This document shows positions 1 through 24,428 of a DNA stretch of 41,135 nt, one piece after another. The translations under genes were made by a program, and so were the position numbers. The notes beneath the pieces are model-generated. The model ran no database searches, was not told the DNA's origin, and worked only from the letters and a program-made list of their open reading frames with translations. The stretch's first letter is position 1. Every line of letters starts with the position of its first letter. This stretch comes from a virus (taxonomy: Duplodnaviria; Heunggongvirae; Uroviricota; Caudoviricetes). Location of the stretch: IMG/VR virus record IMGVR_UViG_2909246061_000001, positions 1 through 41,135 of that record, one strand, 5' to 3'.

Positions 1-483
1 ATGTTAGTTAGTAAAAGCAACGGATTTAACGCTAGCGCAGTTTTGGGTAGTGGAAGTTATAATGAAAATAAATCTTCTAAACACATGGAGCTACTAGCTC
101 ATAGTATTTTAAAATTAATTTGTAAGGAAGCTGCATCAGAGACGTATCGCGGTGCTCTTGAAACTTTACAAAAAATGATGTCTGAATGTATATATCAAGA
201 AGGCAACGCCTTTGTCATTATGGGAGCTGGAGAACAATTAAAACGTATTAAATATGAAGTTGGTGAAAATAACTTAAAGGTATTCAACGTACACTTTAAT
301 AATAATCACGAGTTAGTTAGTTCTGGTGAGCCTGACGTAATATGTTTAAGCAAGCAGGTCTGGGAAAATCTTCTCATTAAACTAAAGCTGGAAAACAATG
401 AAAATGTGTTTTCTAAAACTAAAAAATTATCGAATAAAAATAATGCCGATCAGTTTTTTGAATGCGCTAAAAGAAATGAATAG
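1..483 (+). CDS. hypothetical AT-rich protein; start at window edge uncertain; in the same frame as 583..1374 and separated from it only by one TAG
   Basis: ORF track; low GC; frame 1 stays open from 484 to the ATG at 583, so this may be the 5' part of one disrupted gene. Confidence 0.3.
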   Translation: MLVSKSNGFNASAVLGSGSYNENKSSKHMELLAHSILKLICKEAASETYRGALETLQKMMSECIYQEGNAFVIMGAGEQLKRIKYEVGENNLKVFNVHFNNNHELVSSGEPDVICLSKQVWENLLIKLKLENNENVFSKTKKLSNKNNADQFFECAKRNE

Positions 484-582
484 AACCTTTTCGATAATAT
501 AAGAAAAAGTGATTTTCATGTTGGTTTACTTAAGCCAAGTAGTACGCGTAGTGTTATTTTAGAAACGCCGCCAAATGTCTGT

Positions 583-1374
583 ATGGAATCACGTAATTCA
601 TATGAAAACAAAATAGATGAGATTTCATCTTTGTCAGAGTCAAAGGAACACCCCATAGATATTCAAGAAAAAAAAGATGCGTTTGTGAATGAGTTCAAGG
701 GGGTATTATTTGATAAAAATACAAGGTCTTCAGAGCTTCTGTTTAATTTTTATGAGTGTTGCTATAAGTTTTTACCAAGAGCTCAGCCTCAAGATAAAAT
801 CGATAGCTATAATTCAGCACTGCAAGCTTTTTCCATTTTTTGTTCATCTACGTTGACACATAATAATATAGGCTTTGATTTCAAATTATTTCCTGAAGTC
901 AAGCTGTCTGGAGAACATCTTGAAACGGTATTCAAATACAAAAATGGCGATGATGTCCGGGAGATAGCCAAAATTAACATTACTCTCCAAAAAGAAGAGG
1001 GTGGTTTATATAATTTACGTGGATTGGATTTTAAGGGGTGCTTCTTTTCTGGACAGAACTTCAGTAACTATGATATTCAATATGTGAACTGGGGAACGTC
1101 ATTGTTTGATGTTGATACTCCGTGTATTTTTAATACGCCTGCTTACAACAAGAGTAATGAAAAATCATTAAAACCTGTGAGCGAAAACGGTTTAAGTGGA
1201 GTATTGACTGATCGTAATAATAAAATAAAACTCATCACGGGCGTGGCACCATTCGATGATATTTTATTTATGGATGATGACTTTGATGATAGTTCCTCTG
1301 AGGATGATCCCGTTGAGAATAGTCCTGTTGTGACTAGTCCCGTTGTATCAAGTTCTAAAAGCAGTTTTCAATGA
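583..1374 (+). CDS. hypothetical protein with pentapeptide-repeat-like segment (NLRGLDFKGCFFSGQNFSNYD) and acidic Ser/Pro-rich C-terminus; possibly effector-like
   Basis: ORF track; AT-rich composition; no recognisable RBS upstream, consistent with being a continuation of 1..483. Confidence 0.35.
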   Translation: MESRNSYENKIDEISSLSESKEHPIDIQEKKDAFVNEFKGVLFDKNTRSSELLFNFYECCYKFLPRAQPQDKIDSYNSALQAFSIFCSSTLTHNNIGFDFKLFPEVKLSGEHLETVFKYKNGDDVREIAKINITLQKEEGGLYNLRGLDFKGCFFSGQNFSNYDIQYVNWGTSLFDVDTPCIFNTPAYNKSNEKSLKPVSENGLSGVLTDRNNKIKLITGVAPFDDILFMDDDFDDSSSEDDPVENSPVVTSPVVSSSKSSFQ

Positions 1375-1468
1375 TTAATAAATGGCAATTTTTACAAAGA
1401 GATAATAACGTAGATTGAAACAATATGTATTATTGATTGAGTAAACGGGATTATTCTTCACACTACAT

Positions 1469-1543
1469 CCATTTTAGTGTCACTACCAAAGAAAAAGGGG
1501 CTACGTTTTCATGTAACCCCTTGATTTATTTGGTGGGCTGGCA
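1469..1543 (-). repeat. degenerate copy of the ssrA 3' flank: terminator hairpin plus about 13 nt resembling the tmRNA 3' end
   Basis: 1469..1543 aligns with 40013..40086 with a few mismatches (ccattttNNNNNcactaccaaagaaaaaggggctacgYtttcaYgtaaccccttgatttatttggtgg), then diverges. Confidence 0.6.
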
Positions 1544-1721
1544 GTGACTGAATTGGTGCTGTAATTGGTTGAAATATTTCATCTAATGTCTGGTTCAACT
1601 TTCCTTAGCTGCCTGAAAGTTTTTTGATCTTACCCAGCAATAACAGCGTTACGGTGCACCACGCCTGACTGAAGAACTGCGTGCTCAGGGTTACCACTTC
1701 AACGTAAAACCGTGGCAGGAG

Positions 1722-1900
1722 GTCCGGACTGAAAAAACTGGTCAGGACATCATCGGCAGGGAACGCACTGCTAGTCTGTAAACTGAACCGACTGGGGCGC
1801 AGTATGTGGCATCTTGTCGTGCTGTTGGAGGAGCTGTGCGAACGTGGTATTAACTTTCGTGCTCTGGCCCAATCTATATTTGCCCAACAATGGGGGGACG
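1722..1900 (+). pseudogene. internal fragment of a Pin/Hin-family DNA invertase gene, truncated at its 3' side by IS1
   Basis: translation [51 protein letters not shown] matches the intact invertase at 31610..32176 (LKKLLRTLSAGDTLVVWKLDRLGRSMRHLVTLIEELRQRGVNFRSLTDSI); N-terminal catalytic region absent; frame runs into the IS1 end at 1901. Confidence 0.55.
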
Positions 1901-1955
1901 GGTGATGCTGCCAACTTACTGATTTAGTGTATGATGGTGTTTTTGAGGTGCTCCA

Positions 1956-2231
1956 GTGGCTTCTGTTTATATCAGCTGTCCCTCCTGTTCAGCTACTGAC
2001 GGGGTGGTGCGTAACGGTAAAAGTACTGCCGGACATCAGCGCTATCTCTGCTCTCACTGCCGTAAAACATGGCAACTGCAGTTCACTTACACCGCTTCTC
2101 AACCCGGTACGCACCAGAAAATCATTGATATGGCCATGAATGGCGTTGGATGCCGGGCAACCGCCCGCATTATGGGCGTTGGCCTCAACACGATTTTCCG
2201 CCATTTAAAAAACTCAGGCCGCAGTCGGTAA
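1956..2231 (+). CDS. insA: IS1 transposition regulator InsA
   Basis: 91-aa zinc-finger protein [40 protein letters not shown] typical of IS1 InsA. Confidence 0.85.
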
Positions 2232-2653
2232 CCTCGCGCATACAGCCGGGCAGTGACGTCATCGTCTGCGCGGAAATGGACGAACAGTGGGGCTATGTCG
2301 GGGCTAAATCGCGCCAGCGCTGGCTGTTTTACGCGTATGACAGGCTCCGGAAGACGGTTGTTGCGCACGTATTCGGTGAACGCACTATGGCGACGCTGGG
2401 GCGTCTTATGAGCCTGCTGTCACCCTTTGACGTGGTGATATGGATGACGGATGGCTGGCCGCTGTATGAATCCCGCCTGAAGGGAAAGCTGCACGTAATC
2501 AGCAAGCGATATACGCAGCGAATTGAGCGGCATAACCTGAATCTGAGGCAGCACCTGGCACGGCTGGGACGGAAGTCGCTGTCGTTCTCAAAATCGGTGG
2601 AGCTGCATGACAAAGTCATCGGGCATTATCTGAACATAAAACACTATCAATAA
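2150..2653 (+). CDS. insB: IS1 InsB reading frame (expressed as InsAB' transposase by -1 frameshift at the tttaaaaaac motif near 2203..2212)
   Basis: ORF with canonical IS1 InsB sequence (…[29 protein letters not shown]…); A6C slippery run present. Confidence 0.8.
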
Positions 2654-3913
2654 GTTGGGACCATTACCCATTGGGGCATATTTATACTCGTCTATATGAC
2701 AGTTACTTTTTAAAATTTCACCCTTAAAATCCTCAATTATCTCTGAGTAAAATGATCTTAGTGCTTCATTTATTTTGAGATAGCTGTAATCATGTTCTGG
2801 CTTATAACCAATCAAAGTATATGCTCTTAAAAGACCACCAAATCGGGTTCTATAAACAGAAGATGAAGGGCCTGTATCATCTTCATCAATGATAAAGCCT
2901 GATAGTTTTCCATTAGATTCTAATTTTTGTTTTAGTTTTTCTAATAGATCTTCATTAGTCAAATGAATGGATCGGAGCTGAATTATTTCTTGAGCTTTAT
3001 TGTATTTTTTCTTTGAAATAATAGGTTTATATGCCTTGTCACATCTAACCCATTCATGTTTGGGGTTTTTTACAAGCCTACTTTTTAATTTAGATGAGGT
3101 TTTGTTATATATGTTGTTTCCAATATATTTTTCATTTGTCAAAATTTGATGTATTTTTGCACGAGTCCATAATGTTCCATTTTCTGCAGGTATGTTCTGT
3201 TCATTTAATCTCTCAGCAATAATGAATTCTGGGACGTTATTATCTATAAAGAGATCATATATTCTATTTACAATTTTTATTTCATTTTTTGGTCCCGGAA
3301 TTAATATTACCCTATCTGTTTGAATACTCTTTCTTTTGCGGAAACTCAATATTTCTTTAGCTATGCCATTTTCGTCTACTAAAAGACGTCTCAGCCCATA
3401 ACCAGCCATACCGCCTTGATGATAACCAAGCTTTATTAAATTTACTTGCCCTATAAATACCTTATCAGATAGATTCCTGCTGTGATATGCAGCACTAGAT
3501 CTTTTTATATTCAGTATAACAGAGGACTCTAAAGGGAAATCTTTAGTGGGTATAGGTTCGGAACAATATATAAGATCTACACCATTTCTCTCAAATAGAA
3601 AGGAATAATATGCCGCTTCATCACTATTTTGAAAACGACCAAAACGGCTCACATCATAAAATAATACAGCCTGTATATCTATTTTCTTTTGTTCTACATC
3701 GCTAAGTAACTGCTGCAAAGAATGCCTGCCTACGATACTGACTCCGCTCTTACCTGCATCATCGTAGGTATAAGCGATTTCCATATTGTTCTTTTCAGCA
3801 TAATCTTTGATATATTCGGACTGATTATGTAAAGAATATTGCTGATGGTCGGTAGACATCCTCAAGTACTGCGCGACCCTAACTCTATGATTTTTGTCAT
3901 TTTCGCTAGCCAT
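2588..3913 (-). CDS. large serine recombinase (resolvase-type catalytic domain plus recombinase domain); 3' end interrupted by IS1, so the last 27 codons are IS1-derived and the protein is probably non-functional
   Basis: N-terminal YLRMSTDHQ serine-recombinase motif; AT-rich; ORF crosses the IS1 right end at 2668. Confidence 0.6.
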
Positions 3914-4195
3914 GCACGAAACCTCATGGATGATTCAATACAATGTAGTGGATAAAATTGATCAAATTTCAACCGAATTCAACTGTTTTATCATTGATTA
4001 GAGCGAATTTGGTAGATCTTCGAGGTGTATGATAATCGAGAAGAGATGTGAATTATTTAGCTGATATGACCGACAGCTTTCGTTATGTGGACTCAATGTC
4101 CCCATTTGTAAATGGCTATGCTTAGTCCACATAGGTTAATGGTGTGATTATTAATTCTTTAACTAAATCAAGATAGTTAATCCATCATGGGAGAG

Positions 4196-5425
4196 TTATG
4201 CGGCAATAACTTTGCATTTTTGAGACGAAACATAGTCACTCCACCATTGCATGAGAACCACCCGTTCAGTGAGATACTCTGCACGATTGTAGGCTGCAAT
4301 TATTTCATCTTTCTTCGAGTGGGCAAGGGCGGCTTCTAAGACATCAGTCCTAAACTTGCCAGACTCCTCAGCAGCCGTTCTAGCAATGGATCGCATACCG
4401 TGAGCTACAAGCTCACCTCCGAAACCCATACGGATTATGGCCGCATTAGCTGTTTGTTCATGCATGTGATTGAGTGGAGCTTTGATACTGGGGAACACCC
4501 ACTCTCTATGCCCGCTGATGACTTTCATTAAATCCAAAACTCGCAAAGCTTCTTTGCTCAGTGGAACTTTGTGAGGCTTCTTCATTTTCATAAACTCCGC
4601 CGGGATGTTCCACATGCCAGTTTCAATATCAATATCTGACCATCTTGTGCGAACAGCTTCACCTGGGCGAACCCATGTGAGAAGTTGCCACTCAATCAGT
4701 AGCCTTGTTTCCAAACGGATAGAAGCATTGTTTAGAGCAACCAAGAAGCGAGGGAGTTCGGAAGGGGGTAATGCTGGCATATTCTGTTTTTTTGGCTTGC
4801 TGAACCGTTGCCCCAGGTTGTCTGCCGGGTTGAATTCTATGAGTTCTTCTGTTGCTGCATAGCGGAAAATTTCATTCAGGCGGGATATGATGCGGCGAAG
4901 TGTTTCAAGGACACCTCGTTTTTCTATGGGTTCTAAATGCTGTTTAAGCATTTTAGGGCGAATCTCCTTAATTGGGGTATCACCCAATGTGGAAAAGATA
5001 TTTCTCTCTAGGCTTCGCCAGATGTCGTTAGCATGATCTTGGGAGATGCCTGACGTTTTGACTTTCTCATCAAGCCACTTCTTGGCTACTGCTTGAAATG
5101 TATGTTCCGTGGCATCTTTCAGTGCATTGGCTTTTTGGTTGTTATGAACTTGGGGGTCTATACCATTTGTAAGCAACGACAAGTATTCATCACGTAAAGC
5201 TCGTGCCTTCGCAAGTGTAAGGTGAGGATAGGTTCCTAAGCTCACCTTAGTTCGCTTTTTGGTCACAGGCACTGCATATCTGAAATACCAATTTTTCTTC
5301 CCTCCCTTCGCCAGGGGAGCGATTCGCAACAGCAAACCATCGCCGTCAAAAAGGTTAACCTCTTTTTCGGCAGGTTTGGTGCTTTTGATTTCAGTGTCAG
5401 TGAGCTTCTTAGCGATTTTGGCCAT
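4196..5425 (-). CDS. tyrosine integrase, P4/CP4-57 IntA family
   Basis: N-terminus MAKIAKKLTDTEIKSTKP…DGDGLLLRI…WYFRY typical of P4-type integrases; C-terminal catalytic domain with …HGMRSIARTAAEESG… and YNRAEYLTER; probable ATG at 5425 (the track ORF extends to 5506); lies directly beside an ssrA 3'-end copy, as intA does beside ssrA in CP4-57. Confidence 0.85.
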   Translation of the reverse strand: MAKIAKKLTDTEIKSTKPAEKEVNLFDGDGLLLRIAPLAKGGKKNWYFRYAVPVTKKRTKVSLGTYPHLTLAKARALRDEYLSLLTNGIDPQVHNNQKANALKDATEHTFQAVAKKWLDEKVKTSGISQDHANDIWRSLERNIFSTLGDTPIKEIRPKMLKQHLEPIEKRGVLETLRRIISRLNEIFRYAATEELIEFNPADNLGQRFSKPKKQNMPALPPSELPRFLVALNNASIRLETRLLIEWQLLTWVRPGEAVRTRWSDIDIETGMWNIPAEFMKMKKPHKVPLSKEALRVLDLMKVISGHREWVFPSIKAPLNHMHEQTANAAIIRMGFGGELVAHGMRSIARTAAEESGKFRTDVLEAALAHSKKDEIIAAYNRAEYLTERVVLMQWWSDYVSSQKCKVIAA

Positions 5426-5522
5426 GTTTGGGACCCTCGATTTTAGGACCCATCTTCGTGGGTCCCATTCAGGGTGCCATAACTCGTAGTTCTCAGCAAT
5501 TCTCACTAGACTACAATAGACG

Positions 5523-5560
5523 TAAAAAAGCCCGCAGAGCTTGTGCTGTGCGGGCTTAGT
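5523..5560 (-). terminator. rho-independent terminator hairpin downstream (minus sense) of the ssrA 3'-end copy
   Basis: minus-strand gcccgcacagcacaagctctgcgggc followed by tttttt. Confidence 0.45.
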
Positions 5561-5587
5561 AGACTTTACTGAACTTCAGTACATCAA

Positions 5588-5636
5588 TATTTGGTGGAGC
5601 TGGCGGGAGTTGAACCCGCGTCCGAAATTCCTACAT
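5588..5636. repeat. 49-bp direct repeat identical to the ssrA 3' end; left att site of the P2-like prophage
   Basis: 5588..5636 is identical to 40072..40120 and the sequences diverge immediately outside both copies. Confidence 0.85.
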
Positions 5637-5768
5637 ACCATTTTTACTATAACAAAAACATGAACTTATGTTTAAAATCAGTGTGTTAGTATTATTTTGT
5701 GTTTGTCTGTTTTACGCATTTTTAATGCTCTGCCGCCAAAATGCCGCCACTGGTTTTGCTTGGGAGAC

Positions 5769-7289
5769 TTATTCAGGCTTTAATTTATTGATAATAGAAT
5801 CTACCATTTTAATGCCTGCCTCATTGACTATGACTGAATTGACTACTCTATCAAAATAGTCCTCTATATGGTGGGAAAATAGGAAAGCAGCACTTGATGG
5901 TTTTTTGTTCTTTTCAACTGCAGATTGCAAGACTTCATGAGGCGGAATTTTAAACCTTTTGCATGATGCAATGAGATATTCAAACTCTTCAAATGATAGA
6001 CAAAAAATATTCTCTGTAGGGATATGATAGTTATGTTTAAACTTGTCATATATCTTATTCATCTCATCTTTAGCATAAGTATTAGCTAGGATACTACCAT
6101 TGCCTAAGAAAAGGTTTTTATATGTAATGCAAATGATATATGAGTTAGCCCTGAATGGAGCTATTATTCGCTCATTAGAGTATATTTCTCGATTAACTTC
6201 GTGAGATTGTTCGATTGCTTTTAATACCGATTTCTTTATTTTTCCTGCAATATCCTCAGGGCGTAATGTTACCATGCCTTTTTGGTGTATCTCAACGCCT
6301 TTAGCATCAATGAAAATATTTGCCTCAGTATGTGGAATGAAATAATCAACTACTTTATTATCTTTAGGTAGTCGTTCTTTAAGGTATTTTTCGTTATGAA
6401 AATCAATTTCGCTTTCTTTTAGTATTAATTCCAGTGCATTTTCAAATACATTTCCAAAGCTATCCATGAACTTCTCGGCATCAGTTCTTCTTAAAAGATC
6501 ATATATGAACGTCTGTATGCTTGTTGAAGTCAGTTGTGTGTGTATCTGAAAATACTCTGAACCTTTTTTTATTAATGGTTTTTCAAGAAAAGGTGATGAT
6601 GAGTAGTATTCAAGCAAAGGTTTATCATAGGTTTTTGATTTGCAAAATGTAGATAGTTCATTGTAATTTATTGATATTGCATCAAGAAATTTCTCAATGG
6701 TATTTCTAGGAATGATGTCAAATAATATAGTAAATGTATCTACATTCATTTTTCTCACGGGATGCTCTTCTGTTATGTGAGTTATTAATATGTAAGATAG
6801 CTTAAGAAAGTCTTCGATAGATACATTCGTGATAGTAAAAAAACTTTTCTTTATTTTATGGTTTTTTTCAAGTTCTGAAAATAGAAAGACTTGTCTGCTA
6901 ATTGTGTTTAGAGCGTCAATTTTCTGGTAGATTCCTTGTTGGTATAGATTATTTCTAATGAAGAAATGCATGCCATTCTTCCTCTCAAGACCGATAGGAA
7001 TAATGTTCAAGGTTTCATAAGTTTTTTGGAAGAGTTTTATTGCTTGATTTTTATCGAGGATTTTGAATTTTTTATTCTTGCCAGTTACTGACGCAGACCA
7101 CTTTAGACATAAATTAACAATCCAAGGCATGTGTCGTAACATGTGGATATTATCTTCAAATTTTTGTAAGTTATATTGCATACAGAATTCGATAAATAAA
7201 TCAGGGGAATAACCTTGGATTTCTGAACGAATAGCATCCATTCTTAACTTTGCAACCGCATCAGATTGAATATCTAATTTTTGAATCAC
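5769..7289 (-). CDS. hypothetical 506-aa protein; AT-rich cargo gene between the prophage integrase and the left att
   Basis: long ORF with GTG start and GGAGA RBS 13 bp after the int stop; very low GC against the phage backbone; I recognise no fold; possible PD-(D/E)xK-like signature VVDYF…IFIDAKG. Confidence 0.6.
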   Translation of the reverse strand: MIQKLDIQSDAVAKLRMDAIRSEIQGYSPDLFIEFCMQYNLQKFEDNIHMLRHMPWIVNLCLKWSASVTGKNKKFKILDKNQAIKLFQKTYETLNIIPIGLERKNGMHFFIRNNLYQQGIYQKIDALNTISRQVFLFSELEKNHKIKKSFFTITNVSIEDFLKLSYILITHITEEHPVRKMNVDTFTILFDIIPRNTIEKFLDAISINYNELSTFCKSKTYDKPLLEYYSSSPFLEKPLIKKGSEYFQIHTQLTSTSIQTFIYDLLRRTDAEKFMDSFGNVFENALELILKESEIDFHNEKYLKERLPKDNKVVDYFIPHTEANIFIDAKGVEIHQKGMVTLRPEDIAGKIKKSVLKAIEQSHEVNREIYSNERIIAPFRANSYIICITYKNLFLGNGSILANTYAKDEMNKIYDKFKHNYHIPTENIFCLSFEEFEYLIASCKRFKIPPHEVLQSAVEKNKKPSSAAFLFSHHIEDYFDRVVNSVIVNEAGIKMVDSIINKLKPE

Positions 7290-7301
7290 AATAGGTCTCC
7301 A

Positions 7302-8315
7302 CTACAAATTATAAAGAGGATTTTTAGTCACCGCGTCTTCAAGGTGATCGGGCGAAAAGTGGGCGTAAATCATGGTCATTTTTATATCGGCATGACCCAA
7401 AATATCACGCAGTACCAGTATGTTTCCGCCGTTCATCATAAAGTGACTGGCGAATGTATGGCGAAGCACGTGGGTACATTGGCCCTCCGGTAGGTCAATA
7501 CCGGCCCGCTTTACTGCCCGCTCAAAGGCTTTTCTGCATGGCGTGAATAACTTTCCTCTGTTTTTGGGGAGTTCATCATACAGATCCTGAGATATCGGCA
7601 CAGTACGGTTTTTCTTGCCTTTTGTTTTTGTATAAGTAATTCGGTATTTCGATATTTGATGGCCCTGCAGATTTTCGGCTTCACTCCACCGTGCGCCAGT
7701 AGCCAGACATATTTTTGCAATCATTAGTAAGCTAGGGCTTTGAGATTCAGCACATGCCGCCAACAGGCGCTTGATTTCGTCCGTGGAAAGAAAAGCCAGC
7801 TCACCTTCGGCAATTTTGAAGGTCGGAAGTCCTGCCAGCGGGTTTGGTGCTGACCAGTGTCCTAGTTTTTTTAATGTACCGAACACAGATGATAGATTGC
7901 GCTGTTCAAGGTTTACCGTGCGGGGCTTAACGGGCGACATCAGCGTGCCATCTTCATTTCGCACTTCACCTTTTAGCCGTGCTTCGCGGTATTTCGTAAA
8001 GTCACCGGCAGTCAGCTCTGAAGCGATGGGATCGCCCAGACCATTACAGATAATTCCAAGTTTCGCCATGAGTCGCTTGGGGTCTGCGAGTGTTTGACCA
8101 TACAGGGAATACCACAGCTCAATTAATTCTGATAGGTGTCGCCGATCTTCCTTTTCTCCCAGCCAAGGTTTCTTGTTTACCTCGTCCATGGTGAAATTCT
8201 CAAACGCAATGGCTTCGCCTTTCGTCGCAAATTGTTTGCGTACGCGTTTGCCATCTCGCCCGTTTGGGTAGCATTCACATAACCACTTTCCGTTCGGCTG
8301 TTTTCTGATGGTCAT
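7302..8315 (-). CDS. int: P2/186-type tyrosine integrase
   Basis: 337 aa, same length as P2 Int; C-terminal motifs ARWSEA…HVLRHTFASHFMMNGGNILVLRDILGHADIKMTMIYAHF. Confidence 0.9.
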   Translation of the reverse strand: MTIRKQPNGKWLCECYPNGRDGKRVRKQFATKGEAIAFENFTMDEVNKKPWLGEKEDRRHLSELIELWYSLYGQTLADPKRLMAKLGIICNGLGDPIASELTAGDFTKYREARLKGEVRNEDGTLMSPVKPRTVNLEQRNLSSVFGTLKKLGHWSAPNPLAGLPTFKIAEGELAFLSTDEIKRLLAACAESQSPSLLMIAKICLATGARWSEAENLQGHQISKYRITYTKTKGKKNRTVPISQDLYDELPKNRGKLFTPCRKAFERAVKRAGIDLPEGQCTHVLRHTFASHFMMNGGNILVLRDILGHADIKMTMIYAHFSPDHLEDAVTKNPLYNL

Positions 8316-8316
8316 A

Positions 8317-8949
8317 TCAAAGGCTCTTAATGATTTTCAGTGCGCGGCCTATTACCTCAATGTCATCCAGTTCGCACTCAAACGATGAATCATCCTGATG
8401 CACTACTAATCTGTTTCCCGGGAGTCGTGTCAATTTTACAATGCTTTTTATCCCGTCGATGTCCACTAACCACGTACCATTTACTGGTGGTGTTTGGTTG
8501 CGATCTATTAAATAAGAATCACCAGAAGTAGTCACCAGCAGCAGGTTGCTTGAGTCTGAGGGGAGTATGCTGCTATCAATGATTGCTTTTCCAGCATCGA
8601 TCAGCAAACCTCCGTTGAGAGTTGCCTTGTCAATTTCAGGAGATACAAGCTCCGAAAGAGGTTTAACTTTGCTAGAGTTCACGGAATTGATATTTTTTTT
8701 AGGGTCAATGTTTGAACCTGGATCGCCCTGTCCGGTAGTTAGCCACAGTAAAGAAACTCCTGTTTCCAAAGCGCACTGAATCACCCATTCTGCAGGAAAA
8801 CTATCTCTTAAGTATCTGTTTGCCATAGTGCTTTTTGATGCGCCCAAGTGATCGCAAAGTTGCTGTCTGGACTTGAAATCATAGGCTGCCATTAGCCTAT
8901 GGATAGCCTCTCTTCCCCCTGTATTCTCGCCAGCTTTTACTTGTATCAT
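8317..8949 (-). CDS. cI: 186 CI-type immunity repressor
   Basis: N-terminal HTH plus C-terminal region with CALETGVSLLWLTTGQG and TWLVDIDGIKSIVKLTRLPGNRLVV resembling the 186 CI repressor; divergent from the early operon. Confidence 0.75.
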   Translation of the reverse strand: MIQVKAGENTGGREAIHRLMAAYDFKSRQQLCDHLGASKSTMANRYLRDSFPAEWVIQCALETGVSLLWLTTGQGDPGSNIDPKKNINSVNSSKVKPLSELVSPEIDKATLNGGLLIDAGKAIIDSSILPSDSSNLLLVTTSGDSYLIDRNQTPPVNGTWLVDIDGIKSIVKLTRLPGNRLVVHQDDSSFECELDDIEVIGRALKIIKSL

Positions 8950-8961
8950 TTTTTAATCCTG

Positions 8962-9013
8962 TTGACGTATCAAATATTGGATCGTAGTATCTTGGTGTAT
9001 CAAATATTGAATC
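8962..9013. promoter_or_regulatory. putative early promoter/operator region between cI and the rightward early operon
   Basis: two 17-bp direct repeats gtatcaaatattgRatc (8967..8983 and 8997..9013); TTGACG (8962..8967) 17 bp before TAGTAT (8985..8990) reads as a rightward promoter overlapping the first repeat. Confidence 0.35.
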
Positions 9014-9068
9014 AAATAAAACAAGATAAAACGACGTAAACCAAACCTTAATCGAGAGATACTGCACT

Positions 9069-9317
9069 ATGAGCAACGACATTTCAATTCGTGTACCAAA
9101 AGTGATGGCGACACCAGCTGAGTTCGCGGAATGGGAAGGCCGCTCTCGCGGTTCGGTATATCAAATGATTCATAATGGTAAACTCGCTAAATTCTTGGAA
9201 AGAAAAGAAAAATCGAAAGACAGAGTATGTATACGTTACCTTGAGTACAAAAAGGAACAAGTCAGGAAAAACATGGGCCAATCCAATTTCAACTTTAATG
9301 TCATCGTTGGTGACTAA
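9069..9317 (+). CDS. small HTH protein, Apl/Cox-like excisionase or regulator
   Basis: first gene of the rightward early operon opposite cI; basic 82-aa protein. Confidence 0.5.
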   Translation: MSNDISIRVPKVMATPAEFAEWEGRSRGSVYQMIHNGKLAKFLERKEKSKDRVCIRYLEYKKEQVRKNMGQSNFNFNVIVGD

Positions 9318-9349
9318 GTTCAATTATGAGAACTTTCTAAGGGGGCAGC

Positions 9350-9859
9350 ATGTTTGATTACAAGATTTCCAAACATCCGCATTTTGATGAAGCCTGTAGA
9401 GCTTTTGCACTACGTCACAATATGGCAAAGCTGGCAGAACGTGCAGGAATGAATGTTCAGACACTGCGAAACAAACTCAATCCAGATCAACCGCATCAGC
9501 TCACCGCACCAGAAATCTGGTTGCTTACCGATCTGACTGAAGATTCAACGTTGGTAGACGGTTTTCTGGCACAGATTCATTGTCTGCCATGTGTTCCGAT
9601 TAATGAGGTGGCAAAAGAGAAACTGCCGCATTACGTCATGAGTGCAACTGCAGAGATCGGGCGTGTTGCTGCAGGTGCGGTATCTGGCGATGTAAAAACC
9701 AGTGCAGGTCGTCGTGATGCTATCAGCAGCATTAACTCTGTAACACGACTGATGGCGCTGGCGGCTGTTTCATTGCAGGCCCGTTTACAGGCTAATCCTG
9801 CGATGGCAAGTGCAGTTGATACTGTAACTGGCCTCGGTGCGTCATTCGGTTTGCTGTGA
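9350..9859 (+). CDS. cII: phage regulatory protein CII (186 CII-like)
   Basis: MFDYKISKHPHFDEACRAFALRHNMAKLAERAGMNVQTLRNKLNPDQPHQ closely resembles 186 CII. Confidence 0.8.
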   Translation: MFDYKISKHPHFDEACRAFALRHNMAKLAERAGMNVQTLRNKLNPDQPHQLTAPEIWLLTDLTEDSTLVDGFLAQIHCLPCVPINEVAKEKLPHYVMSATAEIGRVAAGAVSGDVKTSAGRRDAISSINSVTRLMALAAVSLQARLQANPAMASAVDTVTGLGASFGLL

Positions 9860-9866
9860 GGTGCTT

Positions 9867-10067
9867 ATGCTGACGAAAGAACCATCATTTGCATCGCTGC
9901 TGGTAAAACAAAGCCCGGCAATGCACTACGGTCACGGCTGGATCATGGGGGAGGATGGTAAACGCTGGCATCCGTGCCGTTCACAAGATGAATTGCTGGC
10001 AGAACTATCTACGAAAAAACGGGGGAACAAATGGCTATTGAAGGCGCTGCGGCGACTGTTCCATTAA
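9867..10067 (+). CDS. hypothetical phage early protein (66 aa)
   Basis: ATG at 9867 with GAGGTG RBS; overlaps the next ORF by 37 nt, so one of the two may be mis-called. Confidence 0.4.
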   Translation: MLTKEPSFASLLVKQSPAMHYGHGWIMGEDGKRWHPCRSQDELLAELSTKKRGNKWLLKALRRLFH

Positions 10068-10372
10068 GCCCCGGTGAACGCCTGAATGGACTTAACCATA
10101 TTGCGGAGTTAAGGGCGAAAGTATTTGGCCTGAATATTGAGTCAGAGCTTGAGCGGTTTATTAAAGATATGCGTGATCCACGGGATATCAATAACGAACA
10201 AAATAAACGGGCACTGGCTGCTATATTCTTTATGGCAAAAATTCCAGCTGAACGTCATAGCATCAGCATTAATGAGCTGACCACTGACGAAAAGCGGGAG
10301 CTGATTAAAGCAATGAATCATTTTCGTGCAGTGGTGAGCTTATTTCCCAGACGGCTAACCATGCCGAATTAA
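10031..10372 (+). CDS. hypothetical phage early protein (113 aa)
   Basis: ORF with GGGGA RBS; position corresponds to the fil/dhr region of 186-like phages. Confidence 0.4.
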   Translation: MAIEGAAATVPLSPGERLNGLNHIAELRAKVFGLNIESELERFIKDMRDPRDINNEQNKRALAAIFFMAKIPAERHSISINELTTDEKRELIKAMNHFRAVVSLFPRRLTMPN

Positions 10373-10439
10373 CCAACTAATGAAATTAATGGCGTAAACC
10401 CGCCGGGTATCCCTTTATCTAAATTCAGGAGAATTGATT

Positions 10440-10673
10440 ATGCGTAATATTGAAACCCTCACGACTAAAACCGGACCGGATGATGCAGGGCTTAATATTT
10501 TACTGACAGAGGCTCGTCTGGAAGAACGCCGGGCAAGGGCTGAAGCAATGGCAGCTCGCCTTGATAGCCTGGCGTGTCATATCACATCCCGCCAGCTAAA
10601 CCACGTCGAAGCAGCAGAACTACTGCGTGTAACTGCTGAAGCAATCCAGAACGAAGCGCAGGAGATCCACTAA
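10440..10673 (+). CDS. hypothetical phage early protein (77 aa)
   Basis: ATG at 10440 preceded by AGGAGA; stop overlaps the next start. Confidence 0.45.
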   Translation: MRNIETLTTKTGPDDAGLNILLTEARLEERRARAEAMAARLDSLACHITSRQLNHVEAAELLRVTAEAIQNEAQEIH

Positions 10674-10900
10674 TGGCTGATGCAATGGATCTTGTACAGC
10701 AGCGCGTTGAAGAAGAACGCCAGCGCCATATTCGTGCTGCCCGTGCCAAAACGCCGGGCGTGTCCCGCGTGCTTTGCATTGAGTGTGAAGCGCCAATTCC
10801 GCCAGCACGCCGCCGCGCCATTCCAGGTGTGCAGCTTTGCATTACCTGTCAGGAAATCGCAGAGCTGAAAGGCAAACATTACAACGGAGGTGCTGTATGA
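10673..10900 (+). CDS. TraR/DksA-family C4 zinc-finger protein
   Basis: CIECEAPIPPARRRAIPGVQLCITCQ four-cysteine motif; translationally coupled to dam (ATGA overlap). Confidence 0.7.
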   Translation: MADAMDLVQQRVEEERQRHIRAARAKTPGVSRVLCIECEAPIPPARRRAIPGVQLCITCQEIAELKGKHYNGGAV

Positions 10901-11754
10901 GCACCATCCTGAAATGGGCGGGAAATAAAACCGCCATTATGTCCGAACTGAAAAAACACCTTCCTGCTGGCCCGCGACTGGTTGAACCTTTCGCGGGTTC
11001 CTGTGCTGTGATGATGGAGACGGATTACCCCAGCTATCTGGTTGCGGATATTAATCCTGATTTAATCAACCTCTATAAAAAGGTTGCCGCTGATTGTGAA
11101 TCGTTTATATCTCGCGCCAGAGTTTTATTTGAGATCGCAAACAGGGAGGTGGCTTATTACAACATAAGGCAGGAGTTTAATTACTCCACTGAAATTACTG
11201 ATTTCATGAAAGCGGTATATTTCCTGTATCTCAATCGTCACGGTTACCGTGGTTTATGTCGCTATAACAAGAGCGGGCATTTCAACATTCCCTACGGTAA
11301 TTATAAAAATCCGTATTTCCCTGAAAAAGAAATTCGCGCATTTGCAGAAAAAGCCCAGCGGGCAACGTTTATCTGCGCCAGCTTTGATGAAACGCTGGCG
11401 ATGTTGAAGGCGGGGGATGTGGTGTATTGCGATCCGCCGTATGACGGCACGTTTTCCGGTTATCACACTGACGGCTTCACTGAAGATGACCAGTATCACC
11501 TGGCATCCGTTCTTGAACATCGGTCATCAGAAGGACATCCGGTCATTGTTTCTAACAGTGACACATCCCTGATCCGTTCGCTGTATCGCAATTTTACTCA
11601 CCACTACATCAAGGCAAAACGCAACATCGGTGTGGCAGCTGGAGAGGGTAAATCAGCAACAGAAATCATTGCTGTTTCCGGGCCGCGCTGCTGGGTGGGA
11701 TTTGATTATTCGCGTGGCGTGGACAGTTCTGCCGTGTACGGAGTACGTGCATGA
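10897..11754 (+). CDS. dam: DNA adenine methyltransferase (Dam-like, orphan)
   Basis: N-terminal ILKWAGNK…EPFAGSCAV AdoMet-binding motif and DPPY catalytic motif; no partner endonuclease nearby. Confidence 0.85.
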
Positions 11755-14165
11755 GTCATGCCGATATGAACAACTGCTGCGGCTTTAACGAGGCTGCCGC
11801 AGCATTCTCATGGAACAGCCCGAAAAAGGCCATTAACCCTTATCTGGACCCGGCGGAAGTTGCGCCGGTTTCTGCGCTTTCAAACCTGATCACTCTGTAC
11901 GCTGCCGATAACGAGCAGGAACAACTGCGCCGCGAGGCACTGAGTGATCAGGTCTGGGAGCGTTATTTCTTTAATGAATCCCGTGATCCTGTCCAGCGCG
12001 AAATGGAGCAGGATAAGCTAATTAGCCGGGCAAAGCTGGCGCATGAGCAGCAGCGTTTTAATCCAGACATGGTCATTCTGGCGGATGTCAACGCCCAGCC
12101 TTCCCATATCAGCAAGCCGCTGATGCAACGTATTAAATACTTCAGCAACCTGGGCAGGCCAAAGGCTTATTCCCGCTATTTGCGTGAGACGATTAAGCCA
12201 TGCCTGGAACGACTGGAGCATGTACGCGACAGCCAGCTATCTGCATCTTTTCGTTTTATGGCAAGCCATGAAGGGCTGGACGGTCTGCTGATCCTGCCTG
12301 AAATGAGTCAGGATCAGGTGAAACGCCTGTCCACCCTTGTCGCTGCGCATATGAGCATGTGTCTTGATGCCGCTTGTGGTGATTTGTACGCCTCCGATGA
12401 TGTTAAGCCGGAAGAAATCCGCAAGACATGGGAAAAGGTGGCAGCAGAAACCCTGCGACTGGATGTCATACCGCCTGCGTTTGAGCAACTCCGCCGGAAA
12501 AGAAACCGCCGCAAACCTGTGCCCTATGAACTCATTCCGGGTTCGCTGGCGCGTATGCTGTGCGCCGACTGGTGGTATCGAAAATTATGGAAGATGCGTT
12601 GCGAATGGCGGGAAGAGCAGTTGCGTGCTGTCTGTCTGGTCAGCAAAAAAGCATCTCCCTATGTCAGCTATGAAGCCGTGATGCATAAACGTGAGCAGCG
12701 CCGTAAGTCGCTGGAGTTTTTCCGTTCTCATGAACTGGTGAACGAAGACGGCGACACGCTGGACATGGAGGATGTGGTAAACGCCAGCAGCAGCAACCCT
12801 GCGCATCGCCGCAATGAGATGATGGCCTGTGTTAAAGGCCTGGAGCTTATCGCGGAAATGCGCGGTGACTGCGCCGTTTTCTACACCATCACCTGTCCGT
12901 CACGTTTCCATTCCACGCTAAATAACGGCAGGCCCAACCCGACCTGGACAAATGCGACGGTAAGACAAAGCAGTGATTATCTGGTTGGCATGTTTGCTGC
13001 ATTTCGTAAGGCGATGCACAAAGCCGGATTGCGCTGGTATGGCGTGCGGGTGGCTGAGCCGCATCATGACGGTACAGTTCACTGGCACCTGTTGTGTTTT
13101 ATGCGCAAAAAAGATCGCCGCGCCATTACTGCTTTGTTGCGTAAGTTTGCCATTCGTGAAGACCGCGAGGAGCTGGGGAATAACACGGGACCACGCTTTA
13201 AGTCTGAGTTGATTAACCCGCGCAAAGGAACGCCGACAAGCTACATCGCGAAATATATCAGTAAGAACATTGACGGGCGTGGTCTGGCTGGCGAGATCAG
13301 CAAGGAAACGGGTAAATCCCTGCGTGATAACGCTGAATACGTGAATGCCTGGGCGTCTCTGCATCGTGTTCAGCAATTCCGCTTCTTTGGCATTCCGGGG
13401 CGTCAGGCTTACCGTGAACTGCGATTGCTGGCTGGTCAGGCGGCAAGGCAACAGGGTGACAAAAAAGCAGGTGCGCCGGTACTGGATAACCCGCGCCTTG
13501 ATGCAATCCTGGCTGCTGCTGATGCTGGTTGTTTTGCCACCTACATCATGAAGCAGGGCGGCGTACTGGTTCCCCGTAAATATCACCTCATCAGAACTGC
13601 TTATGAAATCAACGAAGAGCCGACCGCCTATGGCGATCACGGCATTCGTATTTATGGCATCTGGTCACCTATTGCAGAGGGCAAGATCTGCACTCATGCC
13701 GTGAAGTGGAAAATGGTTCGTAAGGCCGTTGACGTTCAGGAGGCGGCAGCCGACCAGGGCGCTTGCGCCCCTTGGACTCGTGGCAATAACTGTCCCCTTG
13801 CTGAAAATTTGAACCAACAAGGGAAAGACAAATCAGCTGATGGGGATACCAGAACGGACATTACCCGCATGGATGACAAGGAGTTGCACGAATACCTGCA
13901 CAGTATGAGCAAAAAAGAGCGCCGGGAACTGGCTGCAAGGTTACGCCTGGTGAAACCGAAACGGCGTAAAGACTACAAACAGCGAATTACAGACCATCAG
14001 CGACAGCAGCTCGTCTATGAACTGAAGTCCAGAGGATTTGATGGCAGCGAGAAAGAGGTCGATTTACTCCTTCGCGGCGGCAGTATTCCGTCAGGAGCAG
14101 GCCTGCGTATCTTCTATCGGAACCAGCGTTTGCAGGAAGATGATAAGTGGCGGAACCTGTATTAA
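11751..14165 (+). CDS. A: P2 gpA-type replication initiation endonuclease
   Basis: 804 aa; HUH-type motif VHWHLLCF and catalytic Tyr region [12 protein letters not shown]. Confidence 0.9.
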
Positions 14166-14259
14166 TTACGCGGGTTAACAATTCGTGCTCTTAATAATAC
14201 CAGGCATTTCAGGCTGATGAACGTAAAAAAACGTTTTACATCAGTAAGATTATTATATA

Positions 14260-14275
14260 CTGTAAATATAAACAG
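14260..14275. promoter_or_regulatory. LexA (SOS) box upstream of the small operon at 14318
   Basis: ctgtaaatataaacag is a perfect CTGT-N8-ACAG match, about 40 bp before the AGGAGG RBS and ATG at 14318. Confidence 0.55.
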
Positions 14276-14317
14276 TGGTTATATATACAGTATTACTTTG
14301 GTGTCATAGGAGGAAAG

Positions 14318-14506
14318 ATGCAGGACTATTTTTTGGAGTCTTTGAAGCTCCAGCGCATTGATTTTTTTCTTAAGCTTGTAGCGGCTAGTGAGTGTAGTGA
14401 TGAAGAGAAGGGGCTGGCTCTGCAGTGGGTTTCTGAATTGACTGATGAACTCATGGCAAAAATCAGAACCCACGAATACAACCGCTCAATGGATGTCATC
14501 AGCTGA
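14318..14506 (+). CDS. small SOS-regulated protein, possible Tum-like antirepressor
   Basis: 62-aa ORF directly downstream of the LexA box; functional assignment is by position only. Confidence 0.4.
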   Translation: MQDYFLESLKLQRIDFFLKLVAASECSDEEKGLALQWVSELTDELMAKIRTHEYNRSMDVIS

Positions 14507-14516
14507 GGTGACCTTT

Positions 14517-14750
14517 ATGCGCATTGAAATAATGATCGATAAAGAGCAGAAGATTAGCCAGTCTACCCTGGACGCCCTTGAATCCGAGCTTTACCGCAAT
14601 CTGCGCCCCCTGTATCCCAAAATGGTAATTCGCATCCGCAAAGGTAGCTCTAACGGTGTGGAACTGACCGGACTGCAACTGGACGAAGAAAGAAAACAAG
14701 TGATGAAGATTATGCAGAAGGTGTGGGAAGACGACAGCTGGCTGCATTAA
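14517..14750 (+). CDS. DinI-family protein
   Basis: MRIEIMIDKEQKISQSTLDALESEL…KVWEDDSWL resembles E. coli DinI (MRIEVTIAK…); track ORF 14445..14750 trimmed to the internal ATG at 14517. Confidence 0.7.
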   Translation: MRIEIMIDKEQKISQSTLDALESELYRNLRPLYPKMVIRIRKGSSNGVELTGLQLDEERKQVMKIMQKVWEDDSWLH

Positions 14751-14909
14751 GAAAAGTTGCTGGCGTCTGAACTTGGTTCTGGCGTCAGCAAGGTTGAACA
14801 ACGAGTACAGTGAGGCGTTAGGTGTGGCGTTTATTTGATGAGTGAACGCCCGTTCTGCGACAGGTTCGGAGATTAAGGTTGAAACTACGGGCAAAATACC
14901 ATCTTTTTC

Positions 14910-15335
14910 CTACTTAATTGAGTCCAGTAACAAGTTACAGTTACTCTCATTGTAGAGAGAACGAGCAATTAGTGTTACCTGCTTTCCATTCATTCCCGGC
15001 TTATCCCATAACACAGCTTCTTGCGACGCCACAAATTCAGCATAATCAATTATGCGTTGTTCGTGATCTGGTTCCTCATAGCCAAAGTATGAGAGCGCAT
15101 CGTTGTAAGCGTGGTAAGCTGCTTTCTGTAATATCTTGATATCGGCTGTAGGTACTTGCTCCGTGTAGCTAGGATCTAATTGTGTGCTACTGCCATAGAA
15201 TGCACATGAAAGGTAAGATATTGATTTCTGTTGAGCTTTAGTTCCTTTCTCATAGTTTTTAGCTGTTACCGCCTGAACTGGGACGCTAACAAAGCTTGCA
15301 ACCAGAATTAAAATTAATACGTAAAAGCTTTTCAT
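14910..15335 (-). CDS. small secreted protein of unknown function (141 aa, signal peptide)
   Basis: N-terminus MKSFYVLILILVASFVSVPVQA with probable cleavage after VQA; AT-rich; opposite strand to neighbours; on the A side of cos. Confidence 0.55.
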   Translation of the reverse strand: MKSFYVLILILVASFVSVPVQAVTAKNYEKGTKAQQKSISYLSCAFYGSSTQLDPSYTEQVPTADIKILQKAAYHAYNDALSYFGYEEPDHEQRIIDYAEFVASQEAVLWDKPGMNGKQVTLIARSLYNESNCNLLLDSIK

Positions 15336-15678
15336 TTTGACCTCAGCCGAAACGTTAGAGAGACTATCGAAATTTGTAAAACCCGTGGCGATTCAGTTTG
15401 AGATCCTCCCCCTTACATGATTTTTAATCAAATATATGCTTTTGTAAGCATACCTGTTAACCGAATTATTTATTTTTAGAGATCTTCCGACATACTGATT
15501 ATGCCCGCTGAGGAGTTCACCTTGCGTAAGGTCCGATTCGCTTTACTCGTCTGTGCATGTCTATGCTGCATGAGATTGCATGATCGTTTGAGGATCGTTT
15601 TTGCTAAGGCCCGCCAGAACTGGCGGGCTTTTGCGTAGATCATGCACCTGCATGAAAACCACTACATAAAGCGGGCAG

Positions 15679-15697
15679 GCGTGGCGGGGATACGAGC
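15679..15697. other. putative cos site (cohesive-end region) of the P2-like phage
   Basis: ggcgtggcggggatacgag matches the first 12 nt of the 186 cos (GGCGTGGCGGGG…) and resembles P2 cos GGCGAGGCGGGGAAAGCAC. Confidence 0.4.
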
Positions 15698-15763
15698 GCG
15701 CGCTTATTACTTTGATAGTACTCGGGTTATAATATGGATGACTATCTATCTCGGAGAATGTAC

Positions 15764-17416
15764 ATGTCATTAGACTATATTAAAGAACAGTTGTCAGACT
15801 TTATTTCATCTGCAGAACCTGAGGTAATGGCTATTCAGGGTGAGTGGGGGATTGGGAAAACCTATACTTGGAATGCTTTCTTAAAGGAAAATAAAAATAA
15901 GATTGCATTTAATAGATATAGTTACGTCTCTCTTTTTGGTGTTAATTCATTGGACGCATTAAAATACTCCATCTTTGAAAATACAATTACGAAAGATTTC
16001 ATTGGAAACAAACCTAATTTAAAAACAGCAACACAAAATGCAAAGGGGCTTCTTGAATCCTGCACTAGAAAGACCGCTCGTGTGTTAAAAGATACACCTT
16101 TTTTGAAAAATTTCACTACGACACTTGAGTCAATGTCATTTATGTCAATTACTAATGTTATTGTAGTCATAGATGACTTAGAAAGACGTGGTAAAAATTT
16201 AGAAGTGAAAGATGTCTTAGGGTTGGTTTCTTTATTGAAAGAACAAAAAAATTGTAAGGTGGTTCTTTTACTTAATAACGGGACAAGTGGTATGGATGAC
16301 TACTCCACTTATAAAGAAAAGGTTATTGATAGAGAGATTACCTATAATCCTACTCCAGAAGAATGTGCAGTTATAGCATATAAAAATAATTCTGATGTTC
16401 ATAAATTATTAAGCAAATACTCCATTTCCCTGGGTATTAAGAATATTAGGATACTGAAAAAAATAGAGCGGTTTTTGCTAGCCTTGTTACCTGGCATTAA
16501 CGTTAATTTTGAAAAAATTGCAAATGAAGTCGCACACTCCTTAACTTTGTATTGTTGGAGTCATTACGCATTTACTCCAGATGGAGATGTACCATCATTG
16601 GAGTATATTAGAAATATGAGAAATATCTATATGCGTGATGAAAAAGAGGATGGAAAAGAAAAAAAATGGCTTAATACTTTGCTTATATATGATTATAAAA
16701 AAACAAACGAACTTGATGAAGTCCTTATAGACATGGTAAAGCATGGATATATTGATATGAACAATTTCCAAAGGCAAGTAAGTCTAAGGAATGATGAACT
16801 TATCCGTGATAGTAAGCGAGGTTCACTGTTTGAAGCATGGAAGCTTTTCTATAATTCATTTGAAGATAACCGAAATCAGGTTATTGATAATCTATATCAA
16901 GCGGTGGTTGGTGGGATAGAGTATGTAACTCCAAGTGACTTGGATAGTGTTGTCGGACTGTATAGAGATTTAGGTGAAAATATTCAAGCAAGTGAATTAA
17001 TAAGTAAATTTATTAATTACGGCAATGATGCTCTTAAGGAATATGTTCAATCTATTTACATGAATGTTCATCCTATAAAAGATGCTGAGTTAAAGTCAAA
17101 AATCCAAGATTATTCTACTACTTTAAATCTGGATGGTTCTATAAAGGATGTTCTAATAAAATTATCAAGTCAGAATGGTTGGTCTGATAGGCACGAGGAA
17201 ATATTGGATGCTGCCTCAGAGGATGACTACTATGATTTATTTAAAAAAGTCATTCTTGATGGTGGTGATTCAATAATAGCTACTGCTCTTAAGTTTGGTG
17301 GGTATAGCAATGGTTCAGAAAGAATGAAACGCATCGGAGAAAAAGCGAGAAATGCTTTGATAAGAATTGGAAATGAGTCGAGCATTAATAAAATACGTGT
17401 TAGACGGTATTTGTAA
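15764..17416 (+). CDS. KAP-family P-loop NTPase-like protein (551 aa from the ATG at 15764); candidate anti-phage cargo
   Basis: Walker A GEWGIGKT (15839..15862) and Walker B VIVVIDDLER (about 16160..16186) in KAP-type spacing; GGAG RBS before ATG 15764; perfect TATAAT at 15728..15733; AT-rich; followed by a terminator hairpin. Confidence 0.7.
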   Translation: MSLDYIKEQLSDFISSAEPEVMAIQGEWGIGKTYTWNAFLKENKNKIAFNRYSYVSLFGVNSLDALKYSIFENTITKDFIGNKPNLKTATQNAKGLLESCTRKTARVLKDTPFLKNFTTTLESMSFMSITNVIVVIDDLERRGKNLEVKDVLGLVSLLKEQKNCKVVLLLNNGTSGMDDYSTYKEKVIDREITYNPTPEECAVIAYKNNSDVHKLLSKYSISLGIKNIRILKKIERFLLALLPGINVNFEKIANEVAHSLTLYCWSHYAFTPDGDVPSLEYIRNMRNIYMRDEKEDGKEKKWLNTLLIYDYKKTNELDEVLIDMVKHGYIDMNNFQRQVSLRNDELIRDSKRGSLFEAWKLFYNSFEDNRNQVIDNLYQAVVGGIEYVTPSDLDSVVGLYRDLGENIQASELISKFINYGNDALKEYVQSIYMNVHPIKDAELKSKIQDYSTTLNLDGSIKDVLIKLSSQNGWSDRHEEILDAASEDDYYDLFKKVILDGGDSIIATALKFGGYSNGSERMKRIGEKARNALIRIGNESSINKIRVRRYL

Positions 17417-17420
17417 TTTG

Positions 17421-17450
17421 GGAGGGGGATTTTCATCCCCCACACATTTT
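17421..17450 (+). terminator. rho-independent terminator between the NTPase gene and the portal gene end
   Basis: hairpin gggggat-tttc-atccccc followed by a T-rich stretch. Confidence 0.45.
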
Positions 17451-17452
17451 AT

Positions 17453-20247: not shown

Positions 20248-20389
20248 GGCACAAACCTACAGTCTTGAATGAAGGCTTTCCCCGCCTGCGGTTTGTGTGG
20301 TTGTCGGTACAAATACCGTGCATTGTTTCACTGCCCTCATCACCGCAACCATAAGGCTCCAGTAAGTTTTTTCTAACGGAGCACGGCTC

Positions 20390-21223: not shown

Positions 21224-21239
21224 TGGAGCACAAAACCTG

Positions 21240-22298: not shown

Positions 22299-22301
22299 TT
22301 C

Positions 22302-22952: not shown

Positions 22953-23047
22953 CAGAACGTGCCCCCGCGCACGGGCGGCACGGGGTGGCGAAAGGCACTG
23001 CCACATCAAAATCCCGTCCACCGCCCTTTATTTCAGGAGAAAGCAGC

Positions 23048-23512: not shown

Positions 23513-23715
23513 TGAAAGTGCGTGCGCATCAGTATGACACGGTGGACGCGCTTTGCTGGCGTCATTACGGGCGCACGCAGGGTGTCACGGAGCAGGTGCT
23601 GAAGGCAAATCCGGGGCTTGCCGAATACGGCCCCTTTTTACCTCACGGGCTGCAGGTGGAGCTGCCGGACATTCCGACCACCACCACCGTGCAGACCGTC
23701 CAGCTATGGGACTGA
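23512..23715 (+). CDS. X: tail protein X (P2 gpX)
   Basis: 67 aa; DALCWRHYGRTQGVTEQVLKANPGLAE resembles P2 X. Confidence 0.8.
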   Translation: MKVRAHQYDTVDALCWRHYGRTQGVTEQVLKANPGLAEYGPFLPHGLQVELPDIPTTTTVQTVQLWD

Positions 23716-23718
23716 ATT

Positions 23719-23934: not shown

Positions 23935-23953
23935 ACGCTGCCTTGTCGGGGCC

Positions 23954-24427: not shown

Positions 24428-24428
24428 A

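Follow-up and report, generated by a model that had tools for sequence, protein, structure and literature searches.

The window analysed here is the whole 41,135-nt stretch of a Caudoviricetes record (IMG/VR virus record IMGVR_UViG_2909246061_000001, positions 1 to 41,135), and its left end carries an interrupted gene, ypjCB, followed by a series of elements integrated at the tmRNA gene ssrA (Table 1). Translation of the first 1374 nt yields a single plus-strand frame of 457 codons that ends with TGA at 1372..1374 and contains one internal stop, the TAG at 481..483. The two open reading frames on either side, of 160 codons plus TAG and of 263 codons plus TGA, are in frame with each other, and the 99 nt between them contain neither a stop nor a start codon, confirming the preliminary description of this DNA, which had taken them for one frame with the TAG as its sole interruption. 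With the 34% G+C of positions 1..1374, a run of 457 codons would by chance contain about 37 stops, the probability of at most one being about 1e-15, and the remaining five frames contain 16–81 stops apiece. One stop against some 37 expected, and against 16–81 in the other frames, shows that the 457-codon frame is a genuine coding sequence.

The start of this frame is the ATG at window position 1. In an identical locus, that of strain 2017.11.01CC (L001 among the comparison loci, which are denoted here by L numbers), whose sequence is 100% identical to window positions 1..1900, an AGGA stands upstream of this ATG at a spacing of 7 nt, and an in-frame TAG lies two codons before it; the NCBIfam model NF050179, described below, likewise begins at residue 1 of the window protein. 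Because the AGGA motif and the in-frame TAG precede position 1 and the model starts at residue 1, the earlier suggestion that the true start may lie upstream of the window is wrong, and leftward extension along the identical locus shows that the gene does not reach beyond the left edge of the window. At the second ATG, position 583, the preliminary description had seen no convincing ribosome-binding site, and indeed none of the Shine-Dalgarno-like motifs AGGA, GGAG, GAGG, AAGG and GGA is present in the 20 nt upstream.

Table 1. Features of the window, with coordinates in window numbering.
Feature	Position	Strand	Description and basis
ypjCB pseudogene, K-12-type allele	1..1374	+	457-codon frame with one premature stop; NF050179 match, RefSeq annotation
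ypjC ORF	1..483	+	160-codon N-terminal fragment, still translatable; DUF5507, ribosome-binding site, conservation profile
Premature amber codon	481..483	+	Ancestral CAG (Gln161); C-to-T transition at nt 481
Inter-domain linker	484..582	+	33 in-frame codons, variable, probably untranslated in the window allele; aligns with intact alleles
ypjB ORF	583..1374	+	263-codon C-terminal remainder without Shine-Dalgarno motif; DUF5508
Seven pentapeptide-like units	1009..1113	+	YNLRG LDFKG CFFSG QNFSN YDIQY VNWGT SLFDV; predicted short beta-solenoid
Acidic Ser/Pro-rich C-terminal tail	1267..1371	+	Predicted disordered; composition
ssrA 3' end copy and terminator hairpin	1481..1536	-	56-nt match, at 96% identity, to the 3' end of the real ssrA
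IS1 copy	1901..2668		768 bp
Large serine recombinase ORF	2588..3913		441 aa
Exact 49-nt ssrA copy	5588..5636		
P2-like prophage, apparently complete	5637..40075		At ssrA
506-aa ORF	5769..7289		No Pfam match; possible cargo of the prophage
Integrase	7302..8315		P2-like prophage
CI repressor	8317..8949		P2-like prophage
KAP-family P-loop NTPase	15734..17416		Possible cargo of the prophage
Real ssrA (tmRNA gene)	40076..40438		
smpB	40653..41135		

The 1374-nt frame is a pair long known from E. coli K-12, ypjC and ypjB, which together are one broken gene, ypjCB; RefSeq/PGAP, NCBIfam and the K-12 literature already record the locus, the way it is split and its status as a pseudogene. With the TAG read as X, the product matches NF050179 (“Ecoli_YpjCB, YpjCB family protein”), an NCBIfam “exception” model made for exactly such a case, with 942.7 bits against a cut-off of 650, residues 1–449 aligning to model positions 1–465 of 465. 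Read in the same way, residues 1–160 match Pfam DUF5507 (model 1–160 of 160, E = 3.6e-109, 362 bits) and residues 195–457 match DUF5508 (model 1–263 of 263, E = 3.2e-186, 617 bits), both exceeding a gathering threshold of 27 bits each. Since the model lengths, 160 and 263, equal the lengths of the split K-12 ORFs, the Pfam boundaries reflect the K-12 annotation: DUF5507 and DUF5508 each stand for half of a single protein, delimited by the K-12 nonsense allele and not by structural domains. K-12 ypjC (b2650) and ypjB (b2649), which NCBI has joined into ypjCB, share with the window the locus, the frame and the TAG at codon 161. Compared with the K-12 derivative MFDpir, the window is 99.9% identical over 1500 nt, has the same ileY-side neighbours and differs by one amino acid in each half (K138 against E; T against A). 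The same 1374 nt are annotated by RefSeq as an “internal stop” pseudogene in both 2017.11.01CC and MFDpir, and ypjC is given as “Pseudogene” in PMC5811629. In place of an uninterrupted frame for a full-length product, the window allele has one broken by the TAG at codon 161, so the window holds a pseudogene allele of the YpjCB family.

Intact alleles are numerous. The O157:H7 gene encodes 449 aa (WP_000906744.1), the genes of L006, L007, L008 and L009 encode 449, 484, 479 and 484 aa, respectively, and 120 full-length or nearly full-length members of 442–492 aa, from E. coli and Shigella sonnei, are listed in the protein database. The O157:H7 allele and the 479–492-aa alleles of E. coli and S. 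sonnei are colinear with the window and have the same start and the same position beside ileY, yet they carry Gln161 and are annotated as functional; many contain a 35-aa linker insertion that the window allele lacks, and the O157:H7 protein ends 8 aa earlier (…SPLV). Aligning 17 diverse intact alleles shows Gln161 to be invariant and, at the nucleotide level, codon 161 is CAG or CAA in L003–L009, L015 and L016. As intact alleles all read Gln (CAG or CAA) at this codon, the TAG is explained by a C-to-T transition at nt 481. The homologues do not end at the position of the TAG with a separate gene following from position 583; the intact ones read through it with Gln, which supports the earlier proposal of a gene inactivated by one nonsense mutation.

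The amber allele is widespread. Megablast located the gene on the chromosome in 3079 of 5426 complete E. coli genomes, with no copy of the locus on the plasmid replicons of these genomes. The exact 57-mer centred on the TAG is found in 1237 complete genomes, K-12 laboratory strains included, and its CAG version in 340; the TAG also occurs in two more E. coli genomes and one Shigella flexneri genome among the GTDB species representatives. The preliminary description had offered a sequencing error as its alternative, and an error of sequencing or assembly at 481..483 in an otherwise intact gene would indeed have to change only one base of the intact codon CAG. However, the same TAG 57-mer in 1237 independently sequenced complete genomes, its presence in the two E. 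coli and one S. flexneri representatives and the identical internal stop flagged by RefSeq leave such an error with practically no probability.

Programmed readthrough or recoding, in which the UAG would be decoded to supply full-length protein at a regulated level, might account for a frame that stays open for 296 codons past the TAG. Gln-inserting amber suppressors (supE/glnV), which many laboratory K-12 strains carry, would moreover restore the ancestral residue. However, the frame past the TAG is still open for the plain reason that the mutation is recent, a near-identical allele (L015) differing from the window at only 6 nt. No recoding signal was found, and Rfam returned no RNA family match in positions 1..2000. 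Furthermore, other lineages break the gene by frameshifts and IS elements, and an MG1655 derivative from Boston (L017, NZ_CP025268.1) has TAA and not TAG at codon 161, presumably what a strain recoded genome-wide from UAG to UAA would show. Regulated decoding of the UAG is thus very improbable.

The amber codon falls between two conserved parts of the protein. Column conservation suggests that the real conserved blocks are aa 41–140 and aa 281–460 in the numbering of the 484-aa alleles; the linker between them (aa 141–280) is the most variable part and holds both codon 161 and the indel, and variability also marks the first 40 residues and the C-terminal tail. Because the TAG sits in this variable linker, the 160-aa YpjC keeps the whole N-terminal block. 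Such a position would suit a functional split, with ypjC and ypjB being separate genes, as in the old K-12 annotation, or with a stand-alone N-terminal domain released adaptively. The separate Pfam families for the two halves and the very common occurrence of the allele, in 1237 genomes, would agree with this reading, as would data on ypjC in K-12: a ypjC deletion in MG1655 F' modestly increased biofilm colonisation by enteroaggregative E. coli 55989, in a study that also saw an approximately 2-fold induction of ypjC transcription (PMC3646849), and the ypjC region of K-12 is bound by Hha, which regulates its expression (PMC2408971). The retained N-terminal block may explain the deletion phenotype and the Hha binding and regulation, but none of this demonstrates an adaptive split. 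The Pfam models, being exactly as long as the K-12 ORFs, mirror the annotation and do not define independent domains, and NCBI models one protein. In addition, ypjB lacks a ribosome-binding site, and diverse alleles outside the TAG lineage are all single ORFs with Gln161. The lesions found in other lineages, at codon 41, codon 153, nt 609 and IS insertion sites, ignore domain boundaries, and S. flexneri has an extra frameshift in the ypjB part. On this balance we regard a functional split as quite unlikely and the window allele as one inactivated gene.

These lesions emerged from about 17 loci inspected by hand, out of 3079. The EC14 allele (L015), 6 nt from the window and with CAG at codon 161, has TGA at codon 41. 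A common 1-nt deletion at nt 609 is found in L004, L005 and L016, with a further stop at codon 153 in L004. W2-5 (L014) carries an IS5 insertion, H117 has an IS1 annotated within ypjCB, and S. flexneri (L013) combines the TAG at codon 161 with a 1-nt deletion at nt 699, in the ypjB part. The alleles hit by these other lesions are nearly identical or related to that of the window, and it is the more divergent ones, of 449–492 aa, that stay intact in O157:H7, S. sonnei and others. Pairwise comparisons among intact alleles give dN of 0.04–0.14 and dN/dS of 0.44–0.87. Within the species, alleles share 76–93% amino-acid identity in a mosaic pattern, with the 35-aa linker indel and two alternative C-terminal ends, …SPLV and …SSSKSSFQ; this high diversity could reflect either diversifying selection or near-neutral drift with recombination. 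ypjCB would thus appear to be a dispensable accessory gene, weakly constrained and repeatedly lost, yet open in many lineages.

Two tRNA-type integration hot spots flank ypjCB, the tRNA gene ileY on one side and ssrA on the other. Positions 1..1900 of the window are colinear with L001–L009, the tRNA-Ile gene lying about 750 nt before the start codon and a recombinase remnant following the gene, and the window allele thereby occupies the conserved position of the family, between ileY and the pinH remnant or ypjA. The horizontally acquired look remarked on earlier is borne out by composition, the gene being AT-rich and foreign-looking at 32–35% G+C compared with 54–59% in the neighbouring core genes; the low-G+C block that holds ypjCB, ygaQ and ileY varies between 29 and 44% G+C in 500-nt windows, with a mean of about 36%. 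The AT-rich neighbour ygaQ, encoding an alpha-amylase C-terminal domain protein, lies beyond ileY and outside the window (approximately 2363..4615 in L001–L003). It is an “internal stop” pseudogene in the K-12 derivative, 2017.11.01CC and O157:H7 and intact in several other strains, being a second decaying gene of the same block.

On the other side of ypjCB, a copy of the ssrA 3' end with a terminator-like hairpin (1522..1495) begins 107 nt past the stop codon. This copy is the outermost att-type repeat of an ssrA island array, and ypjCB lies just outside the array, towards ileY. As three copies of the ssrA 3' end delimit it, 1537..40075 is a tandem array of ssrA-integrated elements, made up of an island remnant disrupted by IS1 and an apparently complete P2-like prophage. 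In comparison with K-12, the window has the IS1 and different ssrA-integrated elements replacing ypjA and CP4-57. The IS1 copy directly adjoins the large serine recombinase ORF, whose product is shorter in the window than in strain 2017.11.01CC (518 aa), and relative to that strain the IS1 junctions have removed a ypjA stub and two ParB genes. Besides its integrase and CI repressor, the prophage encodes a Dam-type methylase, a gpA replication protein, portal, terminase, scaffold, P2 capsid, sheath, tape measure and gpD.

The intact protein belongs to a family that is a fast-evolving Escherichia/Shigella orphan. A phmmer search with an intact allele against 1.84 billion representatives returned one full-length cluster and fragments of the family, and nothing more distant. 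GTDB species representatives yielded only E. coli, S. flexneri and one MAG contig that is probably a contaminant. Sequence and profile searches of the PDB and the PADLOC defence-system models gave no match, a fold search detected no similar fold, and in PHROGs the only hit was a function-unknown family that is the same protein. No signal peptide or hydrophobic segment was detected in YpjCB, the maximum KD19 score being 0.62; ypjB is placed among membrane-protein genes in Table 1 of PMC7414163, while its sequence has neither a signal peptide nor a hydrophobic segment. The first 27 aa are rich in Ser and Asn (7 S, 4 N and 1 acidic residue). We tentatively infer that intact YpjCB is soluble and has two domains, no signal peptide or membrane segment, and a variable, Ser/Asn-rich N-terminus.

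The full-length AF2 model (mean pLDDT 39) is unusable and its Foldseek matches are meaningless. The ypjB part modelled better (pLDDT 62). Its core, residues 24–186, mostly reaches 62–92 per 10-residue block and combines a solenoid-like coil with three helices and a sheet of three strands; the tail that begins at YpjB residue 187 is disordered in the model, with pLDDT below 50 throughout. The pentapeptide-repeat-like segment pointed out in the preliminary description is real as a pattern. Seven consecutive units of the form x-[D/N]-[hydrophobic]-x-x span aa 337–371, and none of 20,000 shuffles reached their score, for a pattern that was chosen post hoc. Against the Pfam Pentapeptide family (PF00805), the isolated segment scored 15.4 bits (E = 0.014) and a longer segment 13.4 bits, both short of the cut-off of 20.2, and the Pfam search with the whole protein gave no PF00805 match. 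AF2 predicts a periodic single-residue strand pattern here, with pLDDT 67–87. YpjCB shares with pentapeptide-repeat proteins seven 5-residue units with a central hydrophobic residue preceded by D or N, and predicted solenoid-like strands. The acidic Ser/Pro-rich tail is also present, with 7 D, 2 E, 10 S and 3 P in the last 35 aa. At low confidence, the C-terminal core may be pictured as a short pentapeptide-type beta-solenoid together with the three helices and the three-stranded sheet, and the acidic tail as disordered.

These features had earlier been likened to those of some secreted effector families, a suggestion that is a compositional hunch and unlikely to hold. In its explicit form, intact ypjCB would encode a type III effector of the pentapeptide-repeat kind, similar to PipB2 of Salmonella or EspX of E. 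coli, and the window would carry a dead copy, lost alongside the decay of a cryptic secretion system in commensal lineages. PipB2 and EspX are pentapeptide-repeat effectors, and YpjCB is likened to them here in general terms. This reading would accommodate a protein with no Sec signal or membrane segment, with a variable Ser/Asn-rich N-terminal stretch of 27 aa and with seven pentapeptide-like units. It would also fit fast evolution, AT-rich DNA bound by Hha, and a gene that is intact in O157:H7 and S. sonnei, both of which have type III systems. However, comparison of the read-through translation with effector and pentapeptide families, a check proposed with the original suggestion, uncovered no effector relative, and PF00805 matched only segments of it, below threshold. 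No similarity to an effector family emerged from phmmer, Pfam, NCBIfam, PDB profiles, the fold search or PADLOC, no chaperone gene is annotated next to ypjCB in L001–L003, and the literature searched contained no secretion data, with nothing relevant under DUF5507/DUF5508 or guessed O157 locus tags. An effector identity for intact YpjCB is accordingly rather doubtful, and any part played in contacts with hosts or competitors is guesswork.

Taken together, window positions 1..1374 are, with high confidence, a ypjCB allele of the K-12 type. The gene is AT-rich, present in single copy and specific to Escherichia/Shigella, and in this allele it is inactivated by an inherited C-to-T amber mutation at codon 161. 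The transition converted the CAG of Gln161 into TAG in the variable linker between two conserved blocks, and the TAG has been inherited: a large E. coli lineage, with K-12 among its members, is fixed for it, and it is present also in the S. flexneri genome examined. Ribosomes that start at the good ribosome-binding site of position 1 would terminate after 160 residues, releasing the YpjC fragment. The remaining 296 codons would be essentially untranslated, because ATG 583, the first possible restart, lacks a Shine-Dalgarno motif; exceptions would be rare readthrough or strains with Gln-inserting amber suppressors, which would restore the ancestral residue. Given that the MG1655 F' ypjC deletion had a phenotype and that ypjC transcription is induced, the N-terminal fragment may keep some activity, and “dead gene” may be too strong a term.

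What the intact protein does can be phrased as a conjecture that we consider improbable as a whole: YpjCB could be an E. coli/Shigella-restricted, rapidly diversifying two-domain protein whose fold is novel and which joins a mini pentapeptide solenoid to an acidic tail; it might leave the cell by a non-Sec route and target host cells or competitors. That commensal lineages of the K-12 kind have lost it repeatedly would then reflect a lost interaction, and the 160-aa YpjC might have a residual role in resistance to biofilm colonisation. Regardless of function, ypjCB is a clear case of parallel pseudogenisation of an orphan accessory gene within one species. Experiments on “ypjC” or “ypjB” in K-12 address pieces of a broken gene; the protein is better studied through its intact alleles, that of O157:H7 or those of 484 aa.
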